Positions 3,451-32,000 of a stretch of 32,000 nucleotides of DNA are shown piece after piece; the first letter of the stretch is position 1, and every line of letters begins with the position of its first letter. The DNA comes from Candidatus Lokiarchaeum ossiferum. Lineage in GTDB: Archaea > Asgardarchaeota > Lokiarchaeia > Sigyniarchaeales > Promethearchaeaceae. The notes beneath the pieces are model-generated. The model was not told the origin of the DNA, did no database searches, and worked only from the letters and a program-made list of their open reading frames with translations. The DNA is taken from positions 930,001-962,000 of the forward strand of contig CP104013.1 in NCBI GenBank assembly GCA_025839675.1, in the 5' to 3' direction. The position numbers were made by a program, and so were the translations under genes.

Positions 3451-5199
3451 ATGAATAATAAACAATTATACAAAATTTCTAAGTTTGCTTACACGGAGGC
3501 ATTCACACAATCTCAATTGGACATCGCAGGTTCTCAACAGAGCAAAATTTTGGAGAAAATGGAAAAAAATCGAAAATATATGAAGATGCAAAGTATTACC
3601 ATGAAAATTGTTGTAGGTGTTTTCATTGCTCTAATGGTGATTATCCCGATTCAAGCATTCATTAGTATTAGAAGTGCTATTGCTGAAAATATTATCCCCG
3701 AAAGTTATTTGATTTTTGCGGGAAGCATGACGCTAAGTGCTTCGTTTTTAATTCAGATAATGTATCTGATTATGTTTGGGATGTTCTTTGCCTCAAGTTT
3801 ACTTTCAGGCGATTATTTGAAATGGCTTTCTACATTACCCATTGAAATGAAAGATATGCGAAAAATTACAATGATGACATTCTTCCGTGGTATGGATGTA
3901 CAATTTGTTGCTTTGCTACTCGTTCTTCCAATCGGTACCGCCATTATTACTCAAAGTATAGTGCTTACTCTGTTGAGTCTTCTGTTATCGATTATAAATA
4001 TAGTCTTCTCATTTAGCTTACTTGTAATAATTGGAGAAAAAATCAATAGAATCATGAATAATAACGAAGCAAATTCGAAAAAAGCAACTTTTGCACGAAT
4101 GTTTGTTATGCTTTCATATTTGATTGGTTCGATGAGTATGTCCTTGGGATTAAATTTTGCAATGAGATTCATTCCAACATTATTTACCGAAGCAACTTTA
4201 AGCAGTATTCCTTCATCTACTATTAATACCCTTAATCTTATATTCAGCGCCATACCTCTCCCTTTTACGGCAAGTTATTCTTTAGTTGAAGTATTAATCG
4301 TTTTAACAGGAAACGGAGAAATATCTACAACTTTGATTATCACATCTCTTCTCGGATTGCTATTGTTTATTGGATTTACATACATCTTATTAAATAAAGC
4401 ACTTAAACTTCTTACGAATGTTTTTGTTCAGAAATCCAAATCTTTTGATGAAAATGCAAAAAAAACCACTATTGAGGATGTAAAGTTATGTATAGAAGAA
4501 CCAGTGAAAGCATTTTTCCTAAAAGATAGACAAATGATTACTCGAGACATGCAAATGATGATGCTTGTTATCATGCCCATCTTACTTCCATTTATAGGAA
4601 TCGCAACAACGGGATTTGTAGGCGAACAGGGAAATGAAGCCTTATTTGTACTTTTTACTGTGAATATCATCTACTCAGTTCTTTCTGGAGTTATGATTGT
4701 TTGGGGATTATTGAATGTGGAATCAACGGGATCAACAATTCATGCTTCCTTACCAATAACAGTAAGAGATCAAGTGAATGCAAAAGTGAGATGGATTTTC
4801 TTAGTATTGACAATTTCTTCTTTCCTTCCAACCATTTTTATGATTGGAAAAGAATATTTCATAGATTATTTGATAATAACCACTCTATTCTTCCCAATTG
4901 GACCCATCACAGGTATTATTACATTAGAACTAAAAGTTAGATTGTTCGGTAAAATGAAATATAAGTATGTAATAGAAGATGTGAATATTGGTCAGACATT
5001 ACTAAAATGGATCTTAATTGGAGTGGTTGCATTATTGGTGTATATAGGAACGTTTGCAATGGTCATAATCTACATGTCAGAAATGACCGAAGGATATATT
5101 GGAAGGATGGCTACAATCATTCTTCCAATTGAAGCAACAGTCAGTGCATTATTATACTTCATCTATAATAAAATGTTCCCTAAACCTAAGATTTTCTAG
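3451..5199 (+). CDS. polytopic membrane protein, putative permease partner of the upstream ABC ATPase
   Basis: 582 aa with many long hydrophobic segments throughout. GAGG lies about 12 nt upstream of the ATG, and the gap to the ATPase stop is 14 nt. There is no recognisable catalytic motif. It is much larger than a typical roughly 250-aa ABC-2 permease. Confidence 0.75.
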   Translation: MNNKQLYKISKFAYTEAFTQSQLDIAGSQQSKILEKMEKNRKYMKMQSITMKIVVGVFIALMVIIPIQAFISIRSAIAENIIPESYLIFAGSMTLSASFLIQIMYLIMFGMFFASSLLSGDYLKWLSTLPIEMKDMRKITMMTFFRGMDVQFVALLLVLPIGTAIITQSIVLTLLSLLLSIINIVFSFSLLVIIGEKINRIMNNNEANSKKATFARMFVMLSYLIGSMSMSLGLNFAMRFIPTLFTEATLSSIPSSTINTLNLIFSAIPLPFTASYSLVEVLIVLTGNGEISTTLIITSLLGLLLFIGFTYILLNKALKLLTNVFVQKSKSFDENAKKTTIEDVKLCIEEPVKAFFLKDRQMITRDMQMMMLVIMPILLPFIGIATTGFVGEQGNEALFVLFTVNIIYSVLSGVMIVWGLLNVESTGSTIHASLPITVRDQVNAKVRWIFLVLTISSFLPTIFMIGKEYFIDYLIITTLFFPIGPITGIITLELKVRLFGKMKYKYVIEDVNIGQTLLKWILIGVVALLVYIGTFAMVIIYMSEMTEGYIGRMATIILPIEATVSALLYFIYNKMFPKPKIF

Positions 5200-5208
5200 C
5201 AAGGGTTA

Positions 5209-5225
5209 TTTTTTTTTCATTTTTT
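5209..5225 (+). terminator. oligo-T tracts (T9, T6) after permease stop
   Basis: The sequence ttttttttt ca tttttt begins 10 nt after TAG 5197-5199. Confidence 0.4.
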
Positions 5226-5317
5226 CTGAGAAGTTTTAGTTTAATCGATTGAAGCTTCTTACTCAGTAAAATATTTAAATTTAAAAAGTTGTTTATCCTA
5301 GTATTGGAGCAATTTCT

Positions 5318-6391
5318 ATGCAAAAATTAATTCTTGTTAATTGGGATATGCAACTTGGACCTCGAACCTTAGTTCAATTTCCTCCCGAAGAAAATTTCCC
5401 ACCAAAAGAAGTTCTCTTAAAAATTTGGGCCCAACATGAAATTAATCCTAAAAAATACTTTATTTCCTATTATGATAACGAGCAGGATAAGTATTATTGC
5501 TCCTATTTAAAGAAACAAATTAGAACCATTAAGACCTATTTCATTGTGTTAGAACTGTCTCCAGAAGATGATGAGCGAATTTTTCAAGAGATCTTGGACA
5601 ACATTGCGGAAGATTTAATTAACAAGATTGATCATCCTCATTTTAACCACGTATTGTCTGAAACATATCGAATTGTTAAAACCTATTCTGATCTTGACCA
5701 AGAACAATTATTTTTAAGATTATTTGAGGATAAAGTGAGATCGGACATTTTTTCAATATTAAGAAATGGGGTTCTCACGAAAAAGCAATTGAAATCTAAG
5801 TTAGAAGATTTATATGGTTACTCTGATTTGAATGTAGATCTTCTCTTAACTCCCTTCATACGATTAGGATTAATTCAAATAAATAATATCCCCGGTTCTC
5901 CAGATTCCCTTTTCTTGGTAAATGATGTTTATTCTTGTTTCTTACCTCCAAAAGAAAAACCTAATACAGATATAATTCGAGATGTAATAACTCAACGGTA
6001 TATGTCACCTAAGATCATTCCAAATGAAGATTTACAACCCCTAATGCATTTATATCAAGAACCAGGAGTTAAAGAACTCATTTCATTATTGAATGAAGAT
6101 ATTCACAACGGTATGCCTTATGAAATCGCACTCACGGTTTTAAAGAATAAAGAAGACACAATTGAACAATTGGAAAAGCACAATATTGTTTTTGTTCACA
6201 ATAAGAAAAGAATTTATCTCATAAGTCAATTGAATTTCATTAAATTCGTACCGACATATTTAATCTCAATTCTAGCTAAAAGATATCAAAAAAGTGAAAT
6301 ATCTTTAGATCAATTAGTTCAACAATTGGATTACATAAAATTAACAGATATGGAAAACACTTTGGGAGCAAATTGGAACCGGATCTATTAG
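5318..6391 (+). CDS. hypothetical protein: N-terminal longin-like domain plus two winged-helix-like segments (NPRL2/FLCN-type architecture suspected)
   Basis: ATG is preceded by GGAG at about -13. The N-terminus LILVNWDMQLGPRTLVQFPPEENF fits the 'strand - GP - strand - P' signature of FLCN/NPRL2/DENN-type longin domains, followed by a beta-beta-alpha-beta-beta-beta-alpha pattern. Later segments (IFSILRNGVLTKKQLKSKL...FIRLGLIQI; YEIALTVLKNKEDTIEQLEKHNIVFV) look like wHTH units. Function is not established. Confidence 0.7.
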   Translation: MQKLILVNWDMQLGPRTLVQFPPEENFPPKEVLLKIWAQHEINPKKYFISYYDNEQDKYYCSYLKKQIRTIKTYFIVLELSPEDDERIFQEILDNIAEDLINKIDHPHFNHVLSETYRIVKTYSDLDQEQLFLRLFEDKVRSDIFSILRNGVLTKKQLKSKLEDLYGYSDLNVDLLLTPFIRLGLIQINNIPGSPDSLFLVNDVYSCFLPPKEKPNTDIIRDVITQRYMSPKIIPNEDLQPLMHLYQEPGVKELISLLNEDIHNGMPYEIALTVLKNKEDTIEQLEKHNIVFVHNKKRIYLISQLNFIKFVPTYLISILAKRYQKSEISLDQLVQQLDYIKLTDMENTLGANWNRIY

Positions 6392-21225: not shown

Positions 21226-21789
21226 ATGAGCCATCAAACAAACCAAATTATCATAAATTTCACCTCTAATTTTCCTCATCTATTTGGTAACATGCAAAAA
21301 TACCTTCCGCTCATAAATCATCTGTTAAGTGAAGAAACTCAGAATAAATTTTATATTGAAACTACTTTGGATGGATTAGTTTACATATACCAAGATTTCA
21401 ATACCTTTTTCTTAATGAATAAACCCTATCCACCCGAAAAAATTAAAAAATTTACTGAAAATCATGAATTAGAACTTGATCCAAAGGTGCTTCCTAACAA
21501 TGTCATTAATCGAGACAATTTTCCTCCTAACGGGGTACATTTTCAATACAAAATCTTCGGAGAAAATAAAGAAAAAATTAGTGATATGATTTTTACTCAC
21601 TTCAAATCCTTTTTATACGATGACGTTTCAATAGTTAATAATCCAAATTATGATTTAACTTTGAAACTTCACAAATTCGAAAACATCGCTCTTTACAATC
21701 AAATGGTGTCCTCAATGTATTCGGGTATTCTGACAGAAGCAGGTCCCGAAATCACAAGAGGAGGAATTTCTAAAAAAATTAAAAATTGA
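21226..21789 (+). CDS. hypothetical protein (187 aa)
   Basis: ATG-initiated ORF with non-degenerate composition and no recognisable motif. Its 3' end overlaps the convergent uxaC 3' end by 11 nt. Confidence 0.5.
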   Translation: MSHQTNQIIINFTSNFPHLFGNMQKYLPLINHLLSEETQNKFYIETTLDGLVYIYQDFNTFFLMNKPYPPEKIKKFTENHELELDPKVLPNNVINRDNFPPNGVHFQYKIFGENKEKISDMIFTHFKSFLYDDVSIVNNPNYDLTLKLHKFENIALYNQMVSSMYSGILTEAGPEITRGGISKKIKN

Positions 21790-23185
21790 AGTAATTTTGA
21801 GCATTATAATAACAAACATCTTGAATCAATTTGCCCAACAGTTCAGGATCATAAGGAATTTCACCTTTGTCGACCCATTTTCCAATTAAGTTACAAAGAA
21901 TCCTTCGAAAGTACTCATGACGCGGATAAGAAAGAAAGCTCCGTGAATCCGTGAGCATCCCGACAAATTTTGATAATAATCCATGATTTGCTAGAGAAAT
22001 CAATTGATTTTCAATCCCTAGCTTTTGATCGTTAAACCACCAAGCACACCCCATCTGCATTTTCCCTACAACTTTACCGTCTTGAAAGCTTCCCAACATC
22101 GTAGCGATAACATCGTTATCTTTGGGATTGATGGAATATACAATGGTTTTTGGTAAAGAATTTGTTGATTCTAATGCATTTAGAAATTTGCACAAAGATA
22201 TTGCGATATTAAAATCCCCCATGGAATCATAGCCAGAATCAGGCCCTAATTCTTGGAACTTAAGTGAATTATTATTCCGTATAGCTCCAAAATGCAGCTG
22301 CATAACCCAGTTTTTTTCTGAATTCATTTTTCCAAATTCTATCATTAGACCAGTTTTCAACTGATCCTTTTGAAGAGTTGAGAGAGGAGAATGGCTTCGG
22401 ATTTGCAAAAAGGCATCTTCCAATTCATTTTTGCTAGAAAAAGTGGAATATGGATGTTCCAACCCATGATCCGAAAGCCGGCATCCGAGAGAATGAAAAA
22501 AATCATGTCGTTTACGAAGAGCACGAATATAAGTAGAAAAATCATTGATGGTTGATTTGGTAATTACTTCCAATTTGTCAACCCAGGAATTGAAATCTTC
22601 GATGTTATCAAAATTTAGAGCTTTATCTGGCCGAAATGCGGGGAAAATTTGAATTTGAAAGGTTTTATCCCTACGTAGCTTTTCATGAAATTCTAAGTTA
22701 TCTAAGGGATCATCGGTAGTACACACAATTTTAACGTTCATTCGTTCCAATAAACCACGAACACGGAAATGATCTTGTTTCAGAAGTTTTTCGGTTTGAT
22801 AATATATATCACGACCCGTTTTCTCATTGAGAATACGGTCTTTTATATTAAAATAACGCAATAGCTCCAAATGAGTCCAATGAAAAAGTGGATTACCTAA
22901 AGTCGCCGGAACCGTTTGAGCCCAAGCATAAAATTTATCGAAATCAGTACCATCTCCAGTAATCAATTTTTCAGGAATACCGTTGGCTCGCATCGCTCGC
23001 CATTTATAATGATCTCCATTGAGCCATAATTGTGTGAGATTTTGAAATTGGGTATTCTCAAAAATATCTTTAACAGAAAGATGACAATGATAATCAATAA
23101 TAGGTAAATTTTCGGCATATTCATGGTATAAAGTCTCGGCTATTGTCGAATTAAGCAAGAAATTTTGATCTAAGAATTTTTTCAT
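21779..23185 (-). CDS. uxaC: glucuronate (uronate) isomerase
   Basis: The N-terminus FLLNSTIAETLYHEYAENLPIIDYHCHLSVKDIFEN matches the hallmark UxaC motif (LYH...PIxDYHCHL). The length of 468 aa is typical, and conserved WW/HxGA-type blocks continue downstream (MQLHFGAIRNNN, GCAWWFND). Confidence 0.9.
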   Translation of the reverse strand: MKKFLDQNFLLNSTIAETLYHEYAENLPIIDYHCHLSVKDIFENTQFQNLTQLWLNGDHYKWRAMRANGIPEKLITGDGTDFDKFYAWAQTVPATLGNPLFHWTHLELLRYFNIKDRILNEKTGRDIYYQTEKLLKQDHFRVRGLLERMNVKIVCTTDDPLDNLEFHEKLRRDKTFQIQIFPAFRPDKALNFDNIEDFNSWVDKLEVITKSTINDFSTYIRALRKRHDFFHSLGCRLSDHGLEHPYSTFSSKNELEDAFLQIRSHSPLSTLQKDQLKTGLMIEFGKMNSEKNWVMQLHFGAIRNNNSLKFQELGPDSGYDSMGDFNIAISLCKFLNALESTNSLPKTIVYSINPKDNDVIATMLGSFQDGKVVGKMQMGCAWWFNDQKLGIENQLISLANHGLLSKFVGMLTDSRSFLSYPRHEYFRRILCNLIGKWVDKGEIPYDPELLGKLIQDVCYYNAQNYFNF

Positions 23186-24273
23186 TAGTTTATCACCGTT
23201 GAATTGTTTTGAATAAAAAGATCTATTTCGGATCGAGTAGGAGATTTGCCTGTCTTAACTTTTAAAGCAGCAACAATTCGGGCAAATTTTGCACATGCAA
23301 TCACATTTTTTATTAGAGTATCAAGATCAAGATGATTTAATTCTTCTTTAGAGGAAATGCGTGAATTAAACTCAACCAAAAAAGCCGCCGCAAAAGTATC
23401 CCCTGCTCCGGTTCGATTTCTTACTTTTATTGAGATAATGGGAATGTGAACAGGTTGCTTATTAGAAACACATATCCAAACACCTTTTTTTCCGAAAGTG
23501 TAGACTCGAATTTTGGCAAAATGCGAGATTTGGAGATCATTTCGGATTACTTGCTGGGAATTCATTGATATATCTGTTTGAGTTTGAGAAAATGAGCAAT
23601 CTTGTAATATAGTAGCAATATCTTGTAGATTCATAAATAGAATATCACAAGGGTGGTCATTAAGTAATTCTAACTGGGCTAAATTGTGTATTTTCTGAGT
23701 CTCAATAGTCACCGCTAGAATTTTATCATGTTTTGGAACCGCCAAATAGATTGGAGCAAATTTTGGAGCAAAAGGAGTGATGAAAACAATGTTATAGGGA
23801 TAAAATTTATGAGTTGGAAATTGAATATCGGTGAAATTCATCTCCTTTTTGCAATTCGAAGCGAGAAGAATTTTAGTTATGGATGGATCTTCAATAATTG
23901 TACTAATTGGAGTCGGCGAAGATTTAATGTAAATGTTAGAAGTGCCTATGCCTAATTCTTGAAGTTCTTGAAGCATCCATTGAGAATTTTCACCAACTAC
24001 AGACAACAAATCCACATTGGCACCCAAGTGAGCTAAAATTTCAGAGGAATTATTCCCATTCCCCCCTCTTTTTAGATAGGAATTCCCTTGAATCTTTTTA
24101 TTGGTGGAATTAACAATATGAAGGATTTTGGATTCAATTTCTTCTTCTGATATATAGGATTGTTGATTTTGAAATAAGTTTTGACTTAAAATCTTGGCCA
24201 AAGATGAATAAACATCAGCCCGATAGAAGAGATCAATATGCAATTCTCCCACTACAATGATTCGATTCTCCAT
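23185..24273 (-). CDS. PfkB-family sugar/sugar-acid kinase
   Basis: GG motif RGGNGNNSS and the C-terminal ATP/anion-hole motif NRTGAGDTFAAAF are present. The stop TAA shares one nt with the uxaC ATG (TAATG). ATG 24273 is preferred over the track's GTG 24282. Confidence 0.85.
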   Translation of the reverse strand: MENRIIVVGELHIDLFYRADVYSSLAKILSQNLFQNQQSYISEEEIESKILHIVNSTNKKIQGNSYLKRGGNGNNSSEILAHLGANVDLLSVVGENSQWMLQELQELGIGTSNIYIKSSPTPISTIIEDPSITKILLASNCKKEMNFTDIQFPTHKFYPYNIVFITPFAPKFAPIYLAVPKHDKILAVTIETQKIHNLAQLELLNDHPCDILFMNLQDIATILQDCSFSQTQTDISMNSQQVIRNDLQISHFAKIRVYTFGKKGVWICVSNKQPVHIPIISIKVRNRTGAGDTFAAAFLVEFNSRISSKEELNHLDLDTLIKNVIACAKFARIVAALKVKTGKSPTRSEIDLFIQNNSTVIN

Positions 24274-24308
24274 TAATGTCACTTAATTCAGTAGATTGGA
24301 TAAAAAAA

Positions 24309-25562
24309 TTAGAGGAGGGATAAATTACCTTCAATTGCGGCTTGAATTATCGGTCCAATTATTTCATCAACTTTTTCAATGGAAACAGGGTTTGGCATAG
24401 CTTGAAGTTTCATAGCATTTTGGGAAGCATCTTTTAATGCTTTTTGTTTATACGCAGCCTGCCAACCAGGCATTTCCGTCAATTTGGTTGGAAATCCCAT
24501 GGATTCATACCAATTCAAAATAGATGTGGCAATAGATACCCCAAGATCACCCTCAACAGGAAGATGCAACATTTGGGCAATTGGACGTAATTTTTCAGCC
24601 ACAACAGGATTTTTGGCATAATATGCCATATAATAGGGTAACATTATTCCTGTAGAATTACCGTGAGCAATTGTATCTGCCCAAGAAAACGAATTCATAT
24701 GCGGTCCCCCAGTACCTTTAAATTTCTCGCCGCCGATGACCGTTCCACCTAAAACTGATGCATAAGCCATCATTGTTCGAGCATTACTATCATTTGGATT
24801 TTCGACTGCAATTTTTAACCACTTAAAAATTAGTTCGATAGATAATAGAGCATATTCATTGATTGATTCATTTCCTGGATCTTGCACAAGATTTAGGTAT
24901 CCCTCCATACTATGAGTTAAAGCATCTAGACCGGCGGTTAAAGTTAGAGAAGCAGGACATGATTTTGTTATTTCAGGATCTATAATTGCATAATGTGGGT
25001 GAATAGCAATATCAGATATTAATTTTTTTAAGTGGAGGTTTTTGATGGTGACGTTGGAATATCGTGTTACTTCTGAAGAAGTTCCAGAAGTCGTTGGAAT
25101 ACAGATACAGGGAGAAATCCGCTCTAACTTAGGAGAAACAGCCCCAACTCCAAAATAGGGAGAAATATCTGTTTCGTTCAATCCCGTCAAAATAAGTGCA
25201 GCTTTTGCAGCATCCATTGCACTTCCTCCCCCTAACGCAATACAAACATCAAAATCATGTTGTAAATATAATTTTGCAATATCTTCCACGGTTTCTTTGG
25301 AAGGGTTTGGTTCCACACCTTCGAAAATAATTGCGCTTAAACCAGCATTATCCAAGGAAGTTAGTAAGGTATCTAAGGAACCATTTTTTTTTACGGATCC
25401 CCCTCCAATCACAATGAGAGCTTTTTTTCCAAATTCGGCAGCTCGCTTACCTACAGTTTTAAGTAAACCAGAGCCAAATTCAATTTTTGTTCGCGGCCAA
25501 TGTTCAAAGATGTCATTTGCCCTTTGAATAATTTCTAAATCTCGATCGGTTAATTCTTCCAT
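24309..25562 (-). CDS. iron-containing (group III) alcohol dehydrogenase
   Basis: Fe-ADH signatures are present: VIGGGSVKKNGS, ALGGGSAMDAAKA, a candidate metal-ligand region GLDALTHSMEGY and a His pair HMNSF...AHG. It ends 36 nt before the kinase ATG (26 nt before the alternative GTG 24282). Confidence 0.9.
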   Translation of the reverse strand: MEELTDRDLEIIQRANDIFEHWPRTKIEFGSGLLKTVGKRAAEFGKKALIVIGGGSVKKNGSLDTLLTSLDNAGLSAIIFEGVEPNPSKETVEDIAKLYLQHDFDVCIALGGGSAMDAAKAALILTGLNETDISPYFGVGAVSPKLERISPCICIPTTSGTSSEVTRYSNVTIKNLHLKKLISDIAIHPHYAIIDPEITKSCPASLTLTAGLDALTHSMEGYLNLVQDPGNESINEYALLSIELIFKWLKIAVENPNDSNARTMMAYASVLGGTVIGGEKFKGTGGPHMNSFSWADTIAHGNSTGIMLPYYMAYYAKNPVVAEKLRPIAQMLHLPVEGDLGVSIATSILNWYESMGFPTKLTEMPGWQAAYKQKALKDASQNAMKLQAMPNPVSIEKVDEIIGPIIQAAIEGNLSLL

Positions 25563-25647: not shown

Positions 25648-27702
25648 TTATTCTTCTTTCAAGAGTAAATTTGAAAGATAATCAATATCCCGTCCCCGCT
25701 GGGTACGTAAGAATTTAACACTATTTTCGGCAGTCTCATAATCGTGAATTACGTTAGAAACGGCGAGAGTCACTGCTAATGGATCATCGAATCCAGGATA
25801 CAATAAATTTCGACCAACAAGGGCACCTTTAATATTGGGCCCTGCTCCTAACCCTTTTTCAAAATTTATGATAGTATCCGTGGGATATCCGGTGGAAGCC
25901 CCTCCCAATAGCAAAATGGGGTTGCTAGTTGAGCGAGCAACTTGCTCAAAATTATCAACATAAGGTACTTTCAACCAAATTTTACTTGAAGATGACCCTC
26001 CAATTGCGGTAGCAACTCCAATTGTTTTGATTAAATCTACATAATTCAATTTTACTCGATACTTATTTTCTATACGTTCTACAGGCAAAGGTTCCACAAA
26101 AGCGGGTAAATTATACTTACCACATTCTCGAACCATATCAGCACAAGCAATAATAGTTTTTTGAGAATATCGGGCTTGACTTGATTGCAAATCTAAACGA
26201 AACATCATTTTTGCTCCATCTAAATTCATATCAAAAATTTCTTTTATTGTATATGCAGTGATCTGATCATCCATTTCATAATCGGAACCCGACAATCCAC
26301 CACGATTCGTACACCCAATTAAAATACGCCCATTCAACAGTGATTCACCACTTACTTCTGTAATCATATGATCTAGAGCAAATAAATCGTCAAATATATC
26401 TGGAGTCGCCATAATCCCATCAACTTTTGGATCAATCAATGTTCGAACAATCCGACCTAAATATTGTTGACGATCTCCCATGGCCACTTCATTATCGCCA
26501 ACAGTTGTAACAAATCGTGCAGGATGATCTGCTGCCACGATGATAATATTAGAATCCCAGGGGTAGGAACGTTTCTTTCTTTTCTTAGCATTCTCCAAAA
26601 TTTGAGTTGAATGTTTGATTTTATATTCAGTTAACCGGTAAAATAACCTTTCGGGAAGAAATTGGCGAGTTTTGAATCGGTAGGCTCCAATGGCATAATT
26701 AACCATGATATGAGCTTCAGCATTTTTCATAGCAGCAATTCCAGTATAGATCACCGATTCACTTGATTGATCACCTATAGGCATGACCTCTAGGGCTATT
26801 CCCCCTTCAAAATCAATGTCCATTAAAGCAATATAAAATTCTTTTAATACTGTTGGAGTCACCGCCCCATCCGGATGATCCATACTTAGGTGAAGATCCC
26901 CATACGCATTCTTTTCTTCTTCTGCAACACAATTTGCCACATGAACCCAATTTAGAAATGGTTTCAAAGATCTAATAGTCTCAACTGTTTCAGGATAACC
27001 GCCATCAAAAATGAGAAACATGTGTGAAACATCATAAAGAAGGCCAAATTCATCATAACCTTGATCAATTTTGATTGTTTCAGCCACAGTTCGAGCATCA
27101 GAGGAAGGACCTATAAGTTGATTTTTTGTTAAACTATGATCAATCCGGTCAAATAGTTCCAAGGTCATTTTCAGAGGTTTTTTCCCTAATTTTTTCGCAC
27201 ATTTCCTATTGTAGCGACACATTTCTTTAATTGATAGAATTAAAGCGCGGATTGCATGTTTTCGATCTTCAGTACAATTTGTAGTTTCTGGATCTTTTCC
27301 GCTTAAGAAACAAAATGCCTTGGCATCAATCTCATAGGCTTCATCAATCAAATTTCTCATTCGATCCACAGCGTTAGAACGCTCAATTTCATTGATGGAA
27401 GAAATATCAGTTGGTTCTATCAGGTGATCCTCATTAATCAATTGAACGGGTTGCGCACAAAAAGAGACATAAAAATTCTCTTTCTTGTATAATGCAGCCA
27501 TTTTCTTACGTAACATCGGATCTTTAATGGTTGTTACTTCAATTCCATTAAAATAATTTGTATTTTTTATCGAGTTAAAAGATTCCACCATAAATTTTTC
27601 GGAAGCTTCACCTAATAAGGTGGTTTTTCCATGACGTGGGCCTGGAAAAGCCATAAAATGTACAATACTTTTGATATTTTTTTCAAATGCCATTTTTTTC
27701 AT
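25648..27702 (-). CDS. two-barrel fusion protein: xylose-isomerase-like TIM barrel (N) plus DeoC/FbaB/LacD-type class-I-aldolase-like barrel (C)
   Basis: Residues about 1-350 show sugar isomerase/epimerase (AP-endonuclease-2 fold) blocks: MTLELFDR, LLYDVSHMF, WVHVANC, GIALEVMP. Residues about 385-684 show aldolase-like blocks: IIVAADHPAR, VDGIMATPD, LPAFVEPLP, KIWLKVPYV (candidate Schiff-base Lys), ILLLGGAS, GALVGRNLL. It is the first gene of the minus-strand operon. Confidence 0.85.
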   Translation of the reverse strand: MKKMAFEKNIKSIVHFMAFPGPRHGKTTLLGEASEKFMVESFNSIKNTNYFNGIEVTTIKDPMLRKKMAALYKKENFYVSFCAQPVQLINEDHLIEPTDISSINEIERSNAVDRMRNLIDEAYEIDAKAFCFLSGKDPETTNCTEDRKHAIRALILSIKEMCRYNRKCAKKLGKKPLKMTLELFDRIDHSLTKNQLIGPSSDARTVAETIKIDQGYDEFGLLYDVSHMFLIFDGGYPETVETIRSLKPFLNWVHVANCVAEEEKNAYGDLHLSMDHPDGAVTPTVLKEFYIALMDIDFEGGIALEVMPIGDQSSESVIYTGIAAMKNAEAHIMVNYAIGAYRFKTRQFLPERLFYRLTEYKIKHSTQILENAKKRKKRSYPWDSNIIIVAADHPARFVTTVGDNEVAMGDRQQYLGRIVRTLIDPKVDGIMATPDIFDDLFALDHMITEVSGESLLNGRILIGCTNRGGLSGSDYEMDDQITAYTIKEIFDMNLDGAKMMFRLDLQSSQARYSQKTIIACADMVRECGKYNLPAFVEPLPVERIENKYRVKLNYVDLIKTIGVATAIGGSSSSKIWLKVPYVDNFEQVARSTSNPILLLGGASTGYPTDTIINFEKGLGAGPNIKGALVGRNLLYPGFDDPLAVTLAVSNVIHDYETAENSVKFLRTQRGRDIDYLSNLLLKEE

Positions 27703-27947
27703 CTTTTATTATTGATTTTTTTGATAATTTGAATAAGAATCATTGATTAAATTCCCCCGAACTGCTTGTAAGGGTTAGCATGCCTTGTTATAACCGAAAA
27801 ATTCCAACAATTAGCATTTTTCATTTCAATCACTTTTAATGCCAAAAACAAATAAAAAAAAGTGTTTTGAATATTTAAAAAAGAGTCAATTTCCATGGAC
27901 TTCTTGAAAATAATAGGGTAATATTGTACGAATATTCACACAAACCA

Positions 27948-28379
27948 TTATAGAAAATAAGATGAATCAACTGGTAAACGATGAGAAATTCGATTTAACG
28001 CATCAATTGTACGAGTTAAAACAAGTAGTGCATCGGCTTTAGATAAATCTTCAGTATTCGTTGTGTGATAAAATCGTTCTAAATATTCAATTACTTCTTC
28101 CAATTGAAGATATCTATGTTTTGGATTTCTTCGATGACTTGATAGTTTTAAGGTCGTGTAAGTTTTGGGTTTCTTAGATGTTTTCTTTTTCTTGGAAACA
28201 GAATGGGAATTAAAATAAAGATATGGCCGCTCTTGTATATTTTTAATTATTTCCAAAACCGTAGTAGGATTAGAAACAACTTCGCGCAAATTTGATGCAT
28301 ATATTTCTCCCCCGTTAGTTTCTATGTATTCATATACGGAATCAATTATTTCAACCATAGATCTTTTTTTTTTTTCCAT
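27948..28379 (-). CDS. hypothetical protein, possible N-terminal winged-helix, basic linker
   Basis: ATG start. The N-terminal roughly 55 aa have a three-helix pattern (IIDSVYEYIETNGGEIYASNLREVVSNPTTVLEIIKNIQ), followed by a Lys/Arg-rich linker (SKKKKTSKKPK...HRRNPKHR). It lies directly upstream of the sugar operon on the same strand. Confidence 0.55.
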   Translation of the reverse strand: MEKKKRSMVEIIDSVYEYIETNGGEIYASNLREVVSNPTTVLEIIKNIQERPYLYFNSHSVSKKKKTSKKPKTYTTLKLSSHRRNPKHRYLQLEEVIEYLERFYHTTNTEDLSKADALLVLTRTIDALNRISHRLPVDSSYFL

Positions 28380-28454: not shown

Positions 28455-29531
28455 TTAGTGGTATGTCATATAAATGTGTTTGAAAAAGAGCCCAAACATA
28501 AATCCTACATCATATAGTGCCTTTTCTGTCAATTCGTTTAAAATAATCAAACCCGGATTCGAAGAATCAGAAAAAAGGAAATGTTGAGCATTATTTTCTA
28601 AGTATGTCGTTTGCTTTGAAAAATCAAGCGTTTTTAATTCCGATGGAATAGAATCTGTATCATAAACATCAGCGAATTCATCCCCAAAATGTTCCAGCAT
28701 GGTGTGAAATATGGGACTTAGTCGAGTAGCGGATTTTTTTCTATAGTGTTCGATTTTCTTAAATGAAAGATCCTTATTGCTCTCATAACCATCTTGGGAT
28801 CCAGATACGATTGCTTTTTTGAATGGTAAAAAACCATCCCTTAGCCGTTTCTGAGTGAAAACCTCGTGTCCACTATGGAGTGCGGAGAGAATTTTCATCA
28901 TTTTTTTTGGTTTCCCTAAATATTTAAAGATCTTCGAGTAAGGAACTGTTTTTGTGTGGAAAGGATGGCCCAAATCCGCTAAATAGTGAGTTGCGCGAGA
29001 ATTAAAACGCCAATACCAATACTTATTCCGATTTGATTTTGCACGTTCCGCTGCGGAAAGATAATACTGGAAACATTGACTAGTACATCCAAATTTTTTG
29101 CCAAACAATGAAAACTCCATATGGCGATATCCATGGCTACCTTTAGTCAATTTTTGGGACCAGTGAAGGTTCAAATCACAATCTAGATGCAAATCAGGCT
29201 CGGTACAATATAAAAACAGAATCTTCCAAGGTTCTATCTTCAGTTCTGGATTAGGTTTAGATGAGTACTTTCCATTCCGAATTTCACAATCAAAACATTC
29301 ATCAGGATTTAATTTAGTTTCAAAATGTGCAGATTTCTTATAGTAATCAATATGTTTGGGACCAATTCGCCAATCTTTAAAATTCGGATTAGGTTGTAAA
29401 GTCACTGGTTCAAGATCGTACATCCATTGATGAGGAAGTGTAGCATAATAGGTAAGATATTCATGGGTATAATACGGACCCCAAGCATCTTCGAGACGAG
29501 GATCTTCATGTAAAAGATAATCTACAACCAT
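28455..29531 (-). CDS. zinc-dependent phospholipase C / S1-P1 nuclease superfamily-like protein, no signal peptide
   Basis: HYLADLGHPFH (encoded about 28955-28990) has exactly the spacing of the family motif HYLxDxxxPxH (three Zn ligands). Upstream lie W-x5-H (WGPYYTHEY) and a His/Asp-rich block (DLHLDCDLNLHW...SHGYRHMEF). Downstream, LHSGHE has the H-x3-E spacing of the last ligand pair. Confidence 0.65.
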   Translation of the reverse strand: MVVDYLLHEDPRLEDAWGPYYTHEYLTYYATLPHQWMYDLEPVTLQPNPNFKDWRIGPKHIDYYKKSAHFETKLNPDECFDCEIRNGKYSSKPNPELKIEPWKILFLYCTEPDLHLDCDLNLHWSQKLTKGSHGYRHMEFSLFGKKFGCTSQCFQYYLSAAERAKSNRNKYWYWRFNSRATHYLADLGHPFHTKTVPYSKIFKYLGKPKKMMKILSALHSGHEVFTQKRLRDGFLPFKKAIVSGSQDGYESNKDLSFKKIEHYRKKSATRLSPIFHTMLEHFGDEFADVYDTDSIPSELKTLDFSKQTTYLENNAQHFLFSDSSNPGLIILNELTEKALYDVGFMFGLFFKHIYMTYH

Positions 29532-29780: not shown

Positions 29781-32000
29781 ATGCTTCTACAGATCACATT
29801 TGGAAAAGTAATAATTGGCATAATGATTGGTTTTCTCTTATTACTTCTTATTCTAGGTATTATATGGTTCTTACTTCCCTATTATTTCAAATATATTCGT
29901 ATCCTAGATTATGATGGAACTTATGATCCAAAAAAAGATACGATCAAGAAACCTACGCCACTTTCAATCCAAACTACAATAGGAAAATTGCTGTTAGATA
30001 AAAAAAACTTAAGTTATTCCATAGATTTTGGAGGAAATCGGAAATTTACCAATGGAACAGTCCAAATATTTTATAAATCAAAATTATATTCATCCTATTC
30101 TTCTCAATTGGAGACTCAATTGACTTTTCGAGGGGAAAAACACCAAGAAGGCACGAATGATCTAGGCATTTTTCATAAAACCATTTGGACATGGCAAATC
30201 CCTCAAACTGAACTAACATTTCAAACACAGTTTTTAGAATTTCCAGAAAAAGATTACATTATATTCCAATTTCATGTTGAAGACTCTATTTCCAATATCA
30301 ATATCAAGCAAATGAAGCAACCCAACGTAAAATTTCCGTGTTTTAATAATGAAAGTTATAATCAACGAATATTGACATATCGAGATGCTCAATTTCATCC
30401 CGCTCAACGTGATTTTGATTTTGTTACAGCTCCAGTTATGCTTTTTGATGATGCTAAAAATGTCGTCATAATTTCGGCATTGGATCATTTCATTACTAAT
30501 GGAGTTGGAAAAAAACTCAATAACAAAAATGGAATGCAAATACAATGTGGAACCAATGGTCATGTTGCAATTATCCCTCAAAATCACACCCACCGCTACA
30601 TTGTCGTTTTTCATCAAGGAATAAACGAGAGTATGCGTTATTGGGGATCCTTATTGAGAAAATTTCATCACGCACCAAAAAAAGAGCGGTATTCTGACGT
30701 CGTGTGCAATTCATTAGGGTATTTCACCGATAATGGAGCCTATTACTATTACAATCCTATCAAAGGTAAAAAATTTGATCAAACACTTATAGAAGTCAAA
30801 AAGCATGCAGATCAAATGAAAATTCCCTATCAATATTACCAATTGGATAGCTGGTGGTATATTAAATCCCTTAAGAAATGGAAACGTGATATTCAAGGAT
30901 ATTTTGGAAAAATTTTAGGAGGGGGGTTATTTGGAGGTACAAAGGATTGGAGCCCAGATCCTTATGCATTTGATATGAGCCTTGAAGATTTGTATCAAAA
31001 ATTAGGACAAAAACCCTTTATAGCTCATAACCGATGGTTTTCGGATGATACAATATATGCTGACAAATTCAAATTTGATATCATCGAGAATCGCGCTCTT
31101 TCAATTGATCCGGACTTTTGGGACTATTTAATGGCTTATTGCAAAAAAAATCATATCGCTGTTTATGAACAAGACTGGCTTTCAACCCACATGGAAAAGA
31201 TGCCACGCCTTCATTCAGAAATTGGGTATGCAGAAAAGTGGTTGGAAAATATGGCTATGGCAGCCGAAAAGCATGGAATCGCTATCCAATATTGTATGGC
31301 CACCCCTGCAATAATCATGCAATCAATTCACAATAAAGCCATTACAAATTCCCGATCCGCTGAAGATTACAATCCTCGTTGGCCTCATAGATATGATGTT
31401 CCGCCGTTCTTTCAATCCTCAATGTTTTCTTCAGCTTTAGGTTTAAATGTCATTAAAGATACCTTCCAAACTACGAGAATATCAAAGATGGCAGGAGAAA
31501 AATACCCAGAACTGATGGTTCTCACGGGAGCTCTTGGAGGAGGACCCATCAGTCCGGGTGACGCAATCGGACATATGAATGCAGAATTAATAAATGCAAC
31601 TTGCCGTAAGGATGGATGGCTATATAAACCATCCCATCCTATGATTCCAGCAGATATCACATTTATCAAGAATTCAACTTACTTTATAGGCCATACATTC
31701 TCACAAATTGCGAATTATAAATGGATTTATAGTCTTACTGCGAATTTTTGGCCGAAACGAGTGAAAAATCCTGATTATTCATTAAAAGAGATCGGAATAG
31801 ATGGAAGATACATTGAGTATGATTGGTTTTCTAAAAAAACACGCCTAGTTGATACAACGAGCAAGTTTGAGGACAAGTTAGAAGAAGAGCAATATATATT
31901 TTCTATATATTCCCCCTTAATTAATAAATCCTTTGCGCTACTTGGAGATGTAAACAAAATCATCATGATGAATGATTGTGAGTTTCTCTCTTTTAATGCT
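29781..32000 (+). CDS. membrane-anchored glycoside-hydrolase-like protein, 3'-truncated by window edge (not in supplied ORF track)
   Basis: Manual codon-by-codon translation from ATG 29781 (in-frame TAA at 29775-29777) gives 740 sense codons with no stop up to base 32000. The N-terminal anchor is KVIIGIMIGFLLLLLILGIIWFLLPYYF. The central region has barrel-like motifs GYFTDNGAYYYY, YYQLDSWWY, AVYEQDWL and GGGPISPGDAIGH. The composition is clearly protein-like, unlike the antisense track ORFs here. Confidence 0.85.
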   Translation, partial: MLLQITFGKVIIGIMIGFLLLLLILGIIWFLLPYYFKYIRILDYDGTYDPKKDTIKKPTPLSIQTTIGKLLLDKKNLSYSIDFGGNRKFTNGTVQIFYKSKLYSSYSSQLETQLTFRGEKHQEGTNDLGIFHKTIWTWQIPQTELTFQTQFLEFPEKDYIIFQFHVEDSISNINIKQMKQPNVKFPCFNNESYNQRILTYRDAQFHPAQRDFDFVTAPVMLFDDAKNVVIISALDHFITNGVGKKLNNKNGMQIQCGTNGHVAIIPQNHTHRYIVVFHQGINESMRYWGSLLRKFHHAPKKERYSDVVCNSLGYFTDNGAYYYYNPIKGKKFDQTLIEVKKHADQMKIPYQYYQLDSWWYIKSLKKWKRDIQGYFGKILGGGLFGGTKDWSPDPYAFDMSLEDLYQKLGQKPFIAHNRWFSDDTIYADKFKFDIIENRALSIDPDFWDYLMAYCKKNHIAVYEQDWLSTHMEKMPRLHSEIGYAEKWLENMAMAAEKHGIAIQYCMATPAIIMQSIHNKAITNSRSAEDYNPRWPHRYDVPPFFQSSMFSSALGLNVIKDTFQTTRISKMAGEKYPELMVLTGALGGGPISPGDAIGHMNAELINATCRKDGWLYKPSHPMIPADITFIKNSTYFIGHTFSQIANYKWIYSLTANFWPKRVKNPDYSLKEIGIDGRYIEYDWFSKKTRLVDTTSKFEDKLEEEQYIFSIYSPLINKSFALLGDVNKIIMMNDCEFLSFNA

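Follow-up and report, generated by a model that had tools for sequence, protein, structure and literature searches.

The two-barrel fusion gene and its operon

The stretch of the Candidatus Lokiarchaeum ossiferum genome analysed here comprises 32,000 nucleotides (GenBank assembly GCA_025839675.1, contig CP104013.1, positions 930,001 to 962,000; hereafter the window). At positions 25648..27702, on the minus strand, it carries a 684-aa open reading frame (ORF) that joins two different (β/α)8 barrels and is predicted to encode a bifunctional enzyme. An N-terminal, xylose-isomerase-like metal barrel of the AP_endonuc_2 type (residues 1–332; 26707..27702, placed with PF01261 and Foldseek) is followed by a connector (residues 333–384; 26551..26706) and a C-terminal class I aldolase barrel of the Cgl0159 type (residues 385–684; 25651..26550, placed with PF22649 and Foldseek), all on the minus strand. 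Judged from the predicted local distance difference test (pLDDT) and the alignment with PDB entry 3FOK, the connector consists of a loop (residues 333–339) and then the helices of the Cgl0159-type N-terminal extension. The frame is unbroken over its 684 codons, as the initial annotation had stated, although without giving the strand. The first three codons are probably untranslated: all homologues begin with MALEKN or MAFEKN, and the database entry for the same gene (P0002) has 681 aa. Because the homologues and P0002 begin at the second methionine (MAFEKN...), the true start is probably Met4 (27691..27693, minus strand), at position 27693. Upstream of the gene, an AT-rich intergenic region of 245 bp (27703..27947, minus strand) reads as the presumed operon promoter.

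The fusion heads a four-gene operon on the minus strand. It is followed after 85 bp by an iron-containing alcohol dehydrogenase of 417 aa (24309..25562; PF00465, PF25137) and, 26 bp downstream of the latter, by a PfkB-family sugar kinase of 365 aa (23185..24282; PF00294, E 1e-21) that shows a weak local match to the IolC N-terminal domain (5.8e-11). The last gene, whose start overlaps the kinase stop by 1 nt, encodes the 468-aa glucuronate isomerase UxaC (21779..23185; PF02614, E 7e-207), a bona fide member that scored 610 bits against NF002794 (cut-off 387). We propose that the kinase is a keto-uronate 1-kinase and that the dehydrogenase is the reductase for an aldehyde product of the aldolase. 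In another Promethearchaeota genome (L055), the gene for a 47%-identical homologue of the dehydrogenase comes after that of a stand-alone aldolase of the Cgl0159 type, which fits such a reduction.

A search of 5.8 billion proteins returned 268 matches; among the best 120, in which domain content was counted, 119 combined the two domains in a single ORF of about 680 aa. These fused matches came from independent assemblies (NCBI, JGI, ENA and Logan) and belonged to Promethearchaeota/Lokiarchaeota, Sigyn- and Hodarchaeota among the archaea and, at 42–47% identity, to Limnochordia and other Bacillota among the bacteria. A scan of species-representative genomes added Mesoaciditogaceae, Gemmataceae, other Planctomycetota, Anaerolineae and Bacteroidota, together with many stand-alone C-domain proteins of about 345 aa. 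The complete genome of the cultured Athalassotoga saccharophila NAS-01 (Mesoaciditogaceae; L026) also carries the fusion. The fusion is therefore not rare: it is spread over Asgard archaea and about six bacterial phyla, with at least 119 independent full-length homologues. Its occurrence in bacteria at 42–47% identity suggests that it was possibly exchanged by gene transfer.

In an alignment of 19 archaeal and bacterial homologues, mean column identity was 59% and the domain junction region was conserved. Since the same fusion is seen repeatedly in assemblies made independently, from archaea as well as bacteria, it is a real gene. An assembly or frameshift artefact joining two genes, which the initial annotation had named as a possible undoing of its finding, is refuted by these homologues, including the one from a complete cultured genome, and is left with next to no probability. 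The search for fused versus split genes that it had suggested found both forms, the fused one being widespread, and the motifs it had quoted (LELF(DR), YDVSH, (V)HVAN, LEVMP, AADHPAR, FVEPLP, WLKVPY and GRNLL) are all present in the translation. Like its author, we found no characterised enzyme with this architecture.

The genome searched is a single contig of 6,035,313 bp with one copy of the PF22649 gene. The search revealed no other DeoC/DhnA-family aldolase in it, no UxuA, altronate dehydratase (UxaA) or mannitol-dehydrogenase-family (UxuB-type) gene, no detectable UxaE homologue, no IolB or IolE homologue (the sole IolD-like match was 29% identical) and no 3-dehydroquinate (DHQ) synthase II. 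The genome does encode a class II fructose-1,6-bisphosphate (FBP) aldolase, an Eda-type aldolase and a MOFRL glycerate kinase. Other Lokiarchaeia with this type of UxaC (among L129–L136) have a cluster of UxaE, UxaC, UxuA and a short-chain dehydrogenase/reductase, corresponding to the Thermotoga-style classical route. With UxaC present here without UxaE or UxuA homologues, in contrast to that classical cluster, we conclude that UxaC has been re-wired to the kinase, the dehydrogenase and the fusion, and two different uronate routes appear to coexist within Lokiarchaeia.

Fold, candidate active sites and family membership of the two barrels

The C-terminal barrel matched PF22649 (Cgl0159-like) over residues 385–642 with 223.7 bits (E 3e-66; cut-off 27) and PDB 3FOK, the structure of Cgl0159, over residues 353–653 (E 6.4e-51). 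Foldseek comparison with 3FOK gave an E of 1.8e-22, a template modelling (TM) score of 0.86 and 36% identity; the next neighbours were the ADH synthase MJ0400 (TM 0.73–0.76), the Thermoproteus tenax FBP aldolase and LacD, all of them, like 3FOK, at probability 1.00. The likeness to Cgl0159 that the initial annotation had pointed out is thus borne out, and Pfam and Foldseek both place this half among the class I aldolases, removing the second doubt that the annotation had raised about itself.

The predicted active site of this barrel is a triad consisting of K498 (DGAKMMFR; 26209..26211), E537 (FVEPLP; 26092..26094), the predicted general acid/base, and K578 (WLKVPY; 25969..25971, minus strand throughout), the candidate Schiff-base lysine, which corresponds to WMKLP in Cgl0159. 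K498, E537, K578 and R631-N632 are invariant in the 19 homologues and also present in Cgl0159. Profile alignments of the NCBIfam models for ADH synthase and archaeal class I FBP aldolase begin at or run through K578, which is likely the Schiff-base lysine. K498 and E537 are 39 residues apart; the corresponding spacing between Lys126 and Glu164 of LacD is 38, and that pair is conserved in DUF2090 (Price et al. 2022, PMC9007349). The specific models scored far lower than their cut-offs: 30.2 bits for archaeal class I FBP aldolase (NF040816, cut-off 430), and 22.8 bits (TIGR01949, cut-off 299) and 28.7 bits (NF005556, cut-off 241) for ADH synthase. A literature search on Cgl0159 found no paper and no published function; cg0198, which may be the same gene, is mentioned only as a 'conserved hypothetical protein'. 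Taken together with the gene context described below, the C-terminal domain is probably a class I aldolase whose substrate is a phosphorylated keto sugar acid originating from a uronate-type compound.

A C-domain tree (FastTree, midpoint-rooted) comprised an Asgard fused clade that includes the window protein, a bacterial fused clade, and a clade of stand-alone proteins linked to phosphofructokinase (PFK) or iol genes. Stand-alone aldolases of about 350 aa from Promethearchaeota/Hodarchaeota (L051, L052 and L055) were nested inside the Asgard fused clade, which indicates secondary loss of the N-terminal barrel.

The N-terminal barrel is very divergent. PF01261 (AP_endonuc_2) matched residues 65–307 with 37.6 bits (cut-off 31.1), and in a profile search of the PDB the best E was 0.002 (MJ1311). 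An AlphaFold2 model built with the 19 homologues had a mean pLDDT of 85.7 and consisted of two separate (β/α)8 barrels, so that Pfam, the model and Foldseek agree with the initial annotation on two different barrels in one polypeptide. The loop joining them (residues 333–339) had pLDDT values below 50, and the 3FOK alignment begins at residue 353. Foldseek neighbours of the N-terminal barrel were D-tagatose 3-epimerase, Art22, MJ1311, UlaE, L-rhamnose isomerase and L-ribulose 3-epimerase.

Candidate metal ligands, all on the minus strand, are E182 (LELFDR; 27157..27159), which aligns with the Glu of IETLN in D-tagatose 3-epimerase; D224-x-x-H227 (YDVSH; 27022..27033), a putative metal ligand and base that aligns with DIGH of MJ1311; H254 (VHVAN; 26941..26943), which aligns with HVH of MJ1311; and E305 (LEVMP; 26788..26790), a putative metal ligand and catalytic Glu that aligns with IEN of MJ1311. 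This correspondence to MJ1311 and D-tagatose 3-epimerase is read from weak profile alignments. D224, H227, H254, D269, H271 and E305 are invariant in the 19 homologues, as are the basic residues K60, R65, R108, R114, R147 and R186. Of the E/D-x-x-H/H/E pattern given in the initial annotation, the last four positions therefore stand, but E182 is kept in 17 of 19 homologues, the other two, P0063 (labelled Bathyarchaeota) and P0070 (Sigynarchaeota), having V or C there. D185-R186, beside E182, is invariant. The Sigynarchaeota-type fusions (P0070; L005, L012 and L013) and P0063 share the V/C replacement and have a 6-residue deletion just before it, with the other candidate ligands retained.

The NCBIfam search with the window's N-terminal domain gave no match to any model. 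Homology thus fixes the fold and a predicted metal-dependent chemistry of the aldose/ketose type, not the substrate, and because the PDB and NCBIfam profile matches were only marginal, the function of this domain was sought in gene context.

Gene context of the aldolase and candidate substrates

We called ORFs in 80 non-redundant loci (49 with the fused and 31 with the stand-alone form), grouped the neighbouring genes into clusters and annotated those that recurred. The aldolase has uronate-type isomerases from three unrelated families as neighbours: UxaC in the window, a Bh0493-type enzyme, and IolB/KduI. The second, a 425-aa neighbour without a Pfam match, was identified as a uronate isomerase of the Bh0493 type (PDB 2PNK/2Q08, E 4e-160); it lies beside the fusion in six loci of Mesoaciditogaceae and two of Gemmatales, and beside the stand-alone aldolase in one Chitinophagales locus (9 loci). 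IolB/KduI was found beside the stand-alone aldolase in 4 loci. Kinases of four families likewise adjoin the aldolase, fused or alone: PfkB (the window and iol-type loci), pyrophosphate-dependent PFK (PPi-PFK), an ADP-dependent PFK/glucokinase-like (ADP-PFK/GK-like) family (L025, L062 and L071) and FGGY (L017). An Athalassotoga sp. operon contains, in order, a uronate isomerase, DeoR, the fusion, PCC, glycoside hydrolases of families GH2 and GH4, a transporter and an ADP-PFK-like kinase, and in one Bacillota locus the fusion is flanked by a heparinase II/III-like lyase and an ADP-PFK-like kinase. What these contexts share is the succession of an aldo-uronate isomerase, a kinase for the newly formed primary alcohol, and this aldolase.

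A PRK14072-type PPi-PFK lies directly downstream of the stand-alone aldolase in 20 of 31 loci. These pairs come from Chloroflexota, Bathyarchaeota, Atabeyarchaeia, Firestonebacteria, Latescibacterota and others (among L053–L086, e.g. L070:8001-10241, L063 and L073), and in L058 the gene order is IolB/KduI, aldolase, PFK. Such a pair could be either an unrecognised FBP aldolase/PFK pair or an aldolase with a PFK paralogue that phosphorylates keto-uronates. This arrangement is also an argument for regarding the C-terminal domain as an ordinary glycolytic or gluconeogenic FBP aldolase (DhnA-like) with an N-terminal barrel of accessory, unrelated activity. JGI names homologues 'DhnA family fructose-bisphosphate aldolase class Ia/sugar phosphate isomerase', and the fold resembles archaeal FBP aldolase. 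We consider this improbable: a class II FBP aldolase is already encoded in the genome, the distribution of the family is patchy (36 of the 151 Lokiarchaeia genomes searched), its score against the archaeal class I model is a small fraction of the cut-off, and the uronate isomerases, the glucuronidase-type GH2/GH4 enzymes and the IolB-aldolase-PFK order of L058 argue for acid-sugar substrates. That the fusion is the genome's only FBP aldolase was rejected outright, given the class II enzyme.

In two Acidobacteria loci (L078 and L085), the gene order is LacI-IolB-IolC-aldolase-IolD, with an aldolase 46% identical to the C-terminal domain of the window protein; the link of the Cgl0159 type with inositol clusters, which the initial annotation had mentioned, is therefore seen here. 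In the inositol pathway, IolB, IolC and IolJ act on 5-deoxy-glucuronate. By analogy, the substrate expected for the aldolase of L078 and L085 would be 2-deoxy-5-keto-gluconate-6-phosphate (DKGP), i.e. 5-deoxy-fructuronate-1-phosphate. With UxaC or a Bh0493-type isomerase in place of IolB, the starting substrate would be glucuronate or galacturonate and the cleavage products dihydroxyacetone phosphate (DHAP) and tartronate semialdehyde.

The same two clusters could be taken to mean that the window protein itself is an IolJ-type DKGP aldolase from myo-inositol catabolism that carries a barrel of the IolE, IolI or IolH type. The related DUF2090 has been proposed as a DKGP aldolase from fitness data (PMC9007349), which favours this assignment. 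A further point for it is that iol clusters typically hold AP_endonuc_2 barrels. There is little chance that it is right, given a genome with no IolB or IolE homologue and only the one distant IolD-like match, an operon partner that is a genuine UxaC, and iol-linked members that are stand-alone and fall in another clade than the fused forms. Malonate semialdehyde, the product of that reaction, would moreover give an aldose-ketose isomerase nothing to act on.

Genome-wide co-occurrence points to the same class of substrates. A Bh0493-type isomerase was present in 18 of 35 fusion-bearing genomes and a canonical UxaC in three more. Within the phylum of one Bacillota carrier, sampled with 301 genomes, the Bh0493-type isomerase occurred in 25/301 genomes overall and in 4/6 with the full-length fusion (Fisher test, odds ratio 26, p 5e-4), a p-value that overstates the association because related genomes are not independent. 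Among the 151 Lokiarchaeia genomes, UxaC was found in 28, the aldolase in 36 and both in 14, against 6.7 expected. The association is consistent in direction across three lineages, and it holds even where the neighbourhood of the fusion looks housekeeping. The patchiness of the family is as expected for an accessory catabolic trait.

Other neighbours recur in narrower groups. A ComB-like phosphatase was set aside as a functional partner, since all 6 loci that have it belong to one Bacillota/Limnochordia synteny block. Another such neighbour is a small cyclophilin-like protein (PF04126/PF18050; L001:12885-13307, L020, L068 and L149:7895-8269), seen repeatedly beside the fusion in Limnochordia; in an archaeal locus (L149) it is encoded between a 2-hydroxyacid dehydrogenase and a MOFRL glycerate kinase, next to a free homologue of the N-terminal domain.

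Proposed pathway role of the N-terminal barrel and relation to known systems

Two kinds of context bear on the step catalysed by the N-terminal barrel. Free homologues of this domain (295–315 aa, 30–37% identical, PF01261 scores of 62–74 bits) are followed directly by a D-2-hydroxyacid dehydrogenase and, 1–3 genes further downstream, by a glycerate kinase in 3 of 5 contexts, and these glycerate kinases belong to two unrelated families, PF02595 (L143/L144 and L146) and MOFRL (L149). A fourth context contains a second AP_endonuc_2 gene and a GlxR-like NAD_binding_2 fragment. Where the N-domain and the aldolase are encoded by split genes in one cluster (L067, L073 and L079), a dehydrogenase of this family is found between the two or next to them. 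The known salvage of tartronate semialdehyde (gcl-hyi-glxR-glxK of E. coli) combines an isomerase with a hydroxypyruvate reductase and a glycerate kinase.

The second kind of context is a gene similar to aspartate aminotransferase (AspAT) and prephenate aminotransferase, whose closest PDB entries are 1GD9, 1DJU and 5WMH. It lies directly upstream of the fusion in 20 of 49 fused loci and in 0 of 31 stand-alone loci. The loci with this pairing range from Loki and Sigyn to Clostridia and Planctomycetota and include the closest relative of the window protein (L097, 76% identical). AspAT-type aminotransferases use 2-oxo acids. Because the free homologues sit with hydroxypyruvate-reductase-type dehydrogenases and glycerate kinases, and because the aminotransferase pairs with the fused form only, the N-terminal barrel most likely acts after cleavage, on the C3 product tartronate semialdehyde. 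The initial annotation had assumed the opposite, with an isomerisation or dehydration feeding an unstable keto-sugar-acid phosphate to the aldolase; gene context points to the reverse order, in which separate uronate isomerases and kinases would make the aldolase substrate.

Two further observations concern these loci. In one bacterial group (L032:10285-12003, L035, L049 and L050), the aminotransferase beside the fusion reaches 570–583 aa because of some 200 additional, unannotated residues at its N-terminus, and the next gene encodes a GHMP-family kinase of about 305 aa. In L149, the gene for a 688-aa archaeal protein with only a sub-threshold TAL/FSA (transaldolase/F6P aldolase) match (3902-5968, minus strand) is divergent to the operon that holds the N-homologue, the 2-hydroxyacid dehydrogenase and the glycerate kinase. 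This protein, unrelated in sequence to the window fusion, was discarded as an analogous fusion but might supply the same C3 module as a further aldolase.

Under the mechanism that we propose, the fusion would be the bifunctional enzyme of a phosphorylative, aldolase-based hexuronate route. UxaC would convert glucuronate (or galacturonate) to fructuronate (or tagaturonate), and the PfkB kinase would phosphorylate the primary alcohol beside the keto group, giving a keto-uronate 1-phosphate that would resemble FBP with the C6 carboxylate in place of the 6-phosphate. The C-terminal aldolase, forming a Schiff base on K578 with the help of K498 and E537, would cleave this compound to DHAP and tartronate semialdehyde, and the fused metal barrel would convert the semialdehyde to hydroxypyruvate, as hydroxypyruvate isomerase does. 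The C3 acid would then be reduced to D-glycerate, by the iron-containing alcohol dehydrogenase acting on the aldehyde or by a 2-hydroxyacid dehydrogenase acting on hydroxypyruvate, and D-glycerate would be phosphorylated to 2-phosphoglycerate by the MOFRL glycerate kinase encoded in the genome; relatives with the neighbouring AspAT-type aminotransferase would form L-serine instead. Fusing consecutive steps around a reactive 2-hydroxy-3-oxo acid makes sense, as the fusion would hand over the semialdehyde. We put the route forward as a possible 5-hydroxy analogue of lower myo-inositol catabolism (IolB/IolC/IolJ). What the data show are the domain identities, the conserved catalytic residues, the layout of the operon and the gene-context statistics; substrate, products and the sequence of the two reactions are inferred, and we give the mechanism as a whole a probability just short of an even chance.

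The same aldolase role could be combined with a barrel that acts before cleavage, as a ketose or keto-uronate 3-epimerase/isomerase of the IolO or UlaE kind, turning tagaturonate, 5-keto-gluconate or their phosphates into the stereoisomer that the aldolase accepts; this is the order of events of the initial annotation. The best structural neighbours of the domain include D-tagatose 3-epimerase, L-ribulose 3-epimerase and UlaE, and the best, if weak, NCBIfam match of the bacterial orthologue is IolO, a 5-keto-L-gluconate epimerase (E 1e-5). With no UxaE in the genome, an epimerase would be useful if galacturonate and glucuronate are both used, and the six invariant Arg/Lys residues would suit a ligand phosphorylated or carboxylated at C6. 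All family scores are far below their cut-offs, however, and an upstream epimerase leaves unexplained both the pairing of the aminotransferase with the fused form only and the enzymes of C3 acids (2-hydroxyacid dehydrogenase and glycerate kinase) beside the free homologues. We regard it as unlikely, although it retains a substantial share of probability.

The aminotransferase also raises the possibility of a biosynthetic role, for example an ADH-synthase-like transaldolase step towards aromatic amino acids or a step in another amino-acid pathway. Its position directly upstream of the fusion in both archaea and bacteria, the housekeeping-like surroundings in Bacillota and the rank of the ADH synthase MJ0400 as second-best structural neighbour are in keeping with this. 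Against it stand the patchy, non-core distribution, ADH-synthase scores of 23–29 bits against cut-offs of 241–299, the lack of a DHQ synthase II gene in the genome, the DeoR regulators, glycosidases and transporters that point to catabolism in several loci, and the genome-wide association of the fusion with a uronate isomerase even in Bacillota. Such a role appears very doubtful, and its specific form, the 6-deoxy-5-ketofructose-1-phosphate (DKFP)/ADH route to aromatic amino acids, was rejected for want of DHQ synthase II and of adequate ADH-synthase scores.

Several observations weigh against the proposed uronate route. The functional evidence for the fusion family is gene context throughout. 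At most fused loci, neither a kinase nor a uronate isomerase was seen in the surrounding 8 kb or so, and several of the loci lie in housekeeping surroundings (tsaBDE, groESL). Among Lokiarchaeia, UxaC is adjacent to the fusion only in this genome, and no UxaC was seen in 22 of the 36 aldolase-bearing genomes. By their scores the PPi-PFK partners are genuine PRK14072 PFKs, so that some stand-alone members could be plain FBP aldolases, and the aminotransferase link could have another meaning. The bacterial (Limnochordia) orthologue scored 17.4 bits (E 2e-3) against the hydroxypyruvate isomerase model TIGR03234 (Hyi; cut-off 353 bits) and 24.9 bits (E 1e-5) against the IolO epimerase model NF041099 (cut-off 300 bits). 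The N-terminal domain is not recognisable as a member of the hydroxypyruvate isomerase family, and our claim is that it may act like Hyi. In the AlphaFold2 model, finally, a predicted TM score (pTM) of 0.53 does not fix the relative orientation of the barrels. The full-length prediction that the initial annotation had recommended thus yielded the two barrels, but it bears neither on whether their active sites face each other nor on the substrate channelling that the annotation had suggested.

Among known systems, Cgl0159 of Corynebacterium glutamicum (3FOK) aligns end to end with the C-terminal 330 residues of the fusion and shares the K/E/K triad and a GRxLLYP motif; it differs in being a stand-alone protein of about 300 aa known as a structural-genomics entry, whereas the window protein has an additional 340-aa metal barrel and lies with UxaC, not with iol genes. 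The ketose 3-epimerases (D-tagatose 3-epimerase, UlaE and IolO) include the best structural matches of the N-terminal domain and, in IolO, its best, weak profile match; the Thermotoga enzyme IolO acts on a keto-uronate. The domain is unlike them in its low identity (12–16%), its long insertions, its additional invariant D269-x-H271 and R186, and a context that favours a C3 substrate. Hyi belongs to the same AP_endonuc_2 superfamily and has the E/D/H/E metal site for which the window protein has candidate residues, and the order of isomerase, reductase and glycerate kinase in gcl-hyi-glxR-glxK is also that around the free N-homologues. The similarity to Hyi is marginal (17 bits, cut-off 353), and the partner reductase is a D-2-hydroxyacid dehydrogenase, not of the GlxR type.

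The closest parallel in proposed chemistry is DUF2090, genetically assigned as a DKGP aldolase (Price et al. 2022, PMC9007349), which would likewise perform a class I cleavage of a 1-phospho-2-keto-hexuronate-type substrate to DHAP and a C3 aldehyde acid. In both cases an aldose-ketose isomerase and a sugar kinase precede the aldolase, and the Lys-Glu spacing is 38–39. DUF2090 is a different Pfam family, the C-terminal domain of the window protein matching PF22649 only, and it is fused to IolC, whereas the aldolase described here is fused to an isomerase-type barrel; the substrate expected for the fusion would keep its 5-hydroxyl group and so yield tartronate, not malonate, semialdehyde. The Ashwell pathway (UxaC, UxuB/UxaB, UxuA/UxaA, KdgK and Eda) and its Thermotoga variant with UxaE share the first step, by UxaC or a Bh0493-type isomerase; here, reduction and dehydration to 2-keto-3-deoxygluconate would give way to phosphorylation of the keto-uronate and aldol cleavage. 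A literature search on a keto-uronate (fructuronate or tagaturonate) kinase and on fructuronate or tagaturonate phosphate found no paper, and a Thermogutta preprint proposes the classical hexuronate route only. The fusion belongs to PF22649 and PF01261 but misses the curated cut-offs of Hyi, IolO, archaeal class I FBP aldolase and ADH synthase. While the enzyme superfamilies and the pathway logic are already known, the fusion has not been described, nor have its class of substrate and the uronate route that would follow.

Uronic acids such as glucuronate and galacturonate are major carbon sources, derived from pectin, hemicellulose, glycosaminoglycans and xanthan, and textbook uronate catabolism follows three logics: isomerase (Ashwell), oxidative and fungal reductive. 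We suggest tentatively, and with rather less than even confidence, a fourth hexuronate route, phosphorylative-aldolytic and ending in glycerate or serine, which would extend across Asgard archaea and at least six bacterial phyla with kinases of four families and isomerases of three. If so, fructuronate would be treated as a look-alike of fructose 6-phosphate and its phosphate ester cleaved directly, so that the route would have fewer steps and stay redox-neutral until the C3 compounds are reached. In addition, it would provide a function for the orphan Cgl0159 family, whose PDB structure dates from 2009, and for a sizeable branch of 'sugar phosphate isomerase/epimerase' barrels that has no name, explain the seemingly redundant PFK-like genes of many genomes, and give Asgard archaea a concrete capacity for sugar-acid fermentation.

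Elsewhere in the window, three ORFs upstream of the operon gave no significant Pfam match: 27948-28379 (minus strand, 143 aa), 28455-29531 (minus strand, 358 aa) and 29781-32000 (plus strand, more than 740 aa, with an N-terminal hydrophobic stretch). The last could conceivably be an unrecognised glycosidase or lyase supplying uronates. At 1541-2446 on the plus strand, and in keeping with the Promethearchaeota affiliation of the closest homologues, the window encodes a 301-aa protein with a small GTPase domain of the Arf/Roc/Ras type, a class of proteins typical of Asgard archaea.

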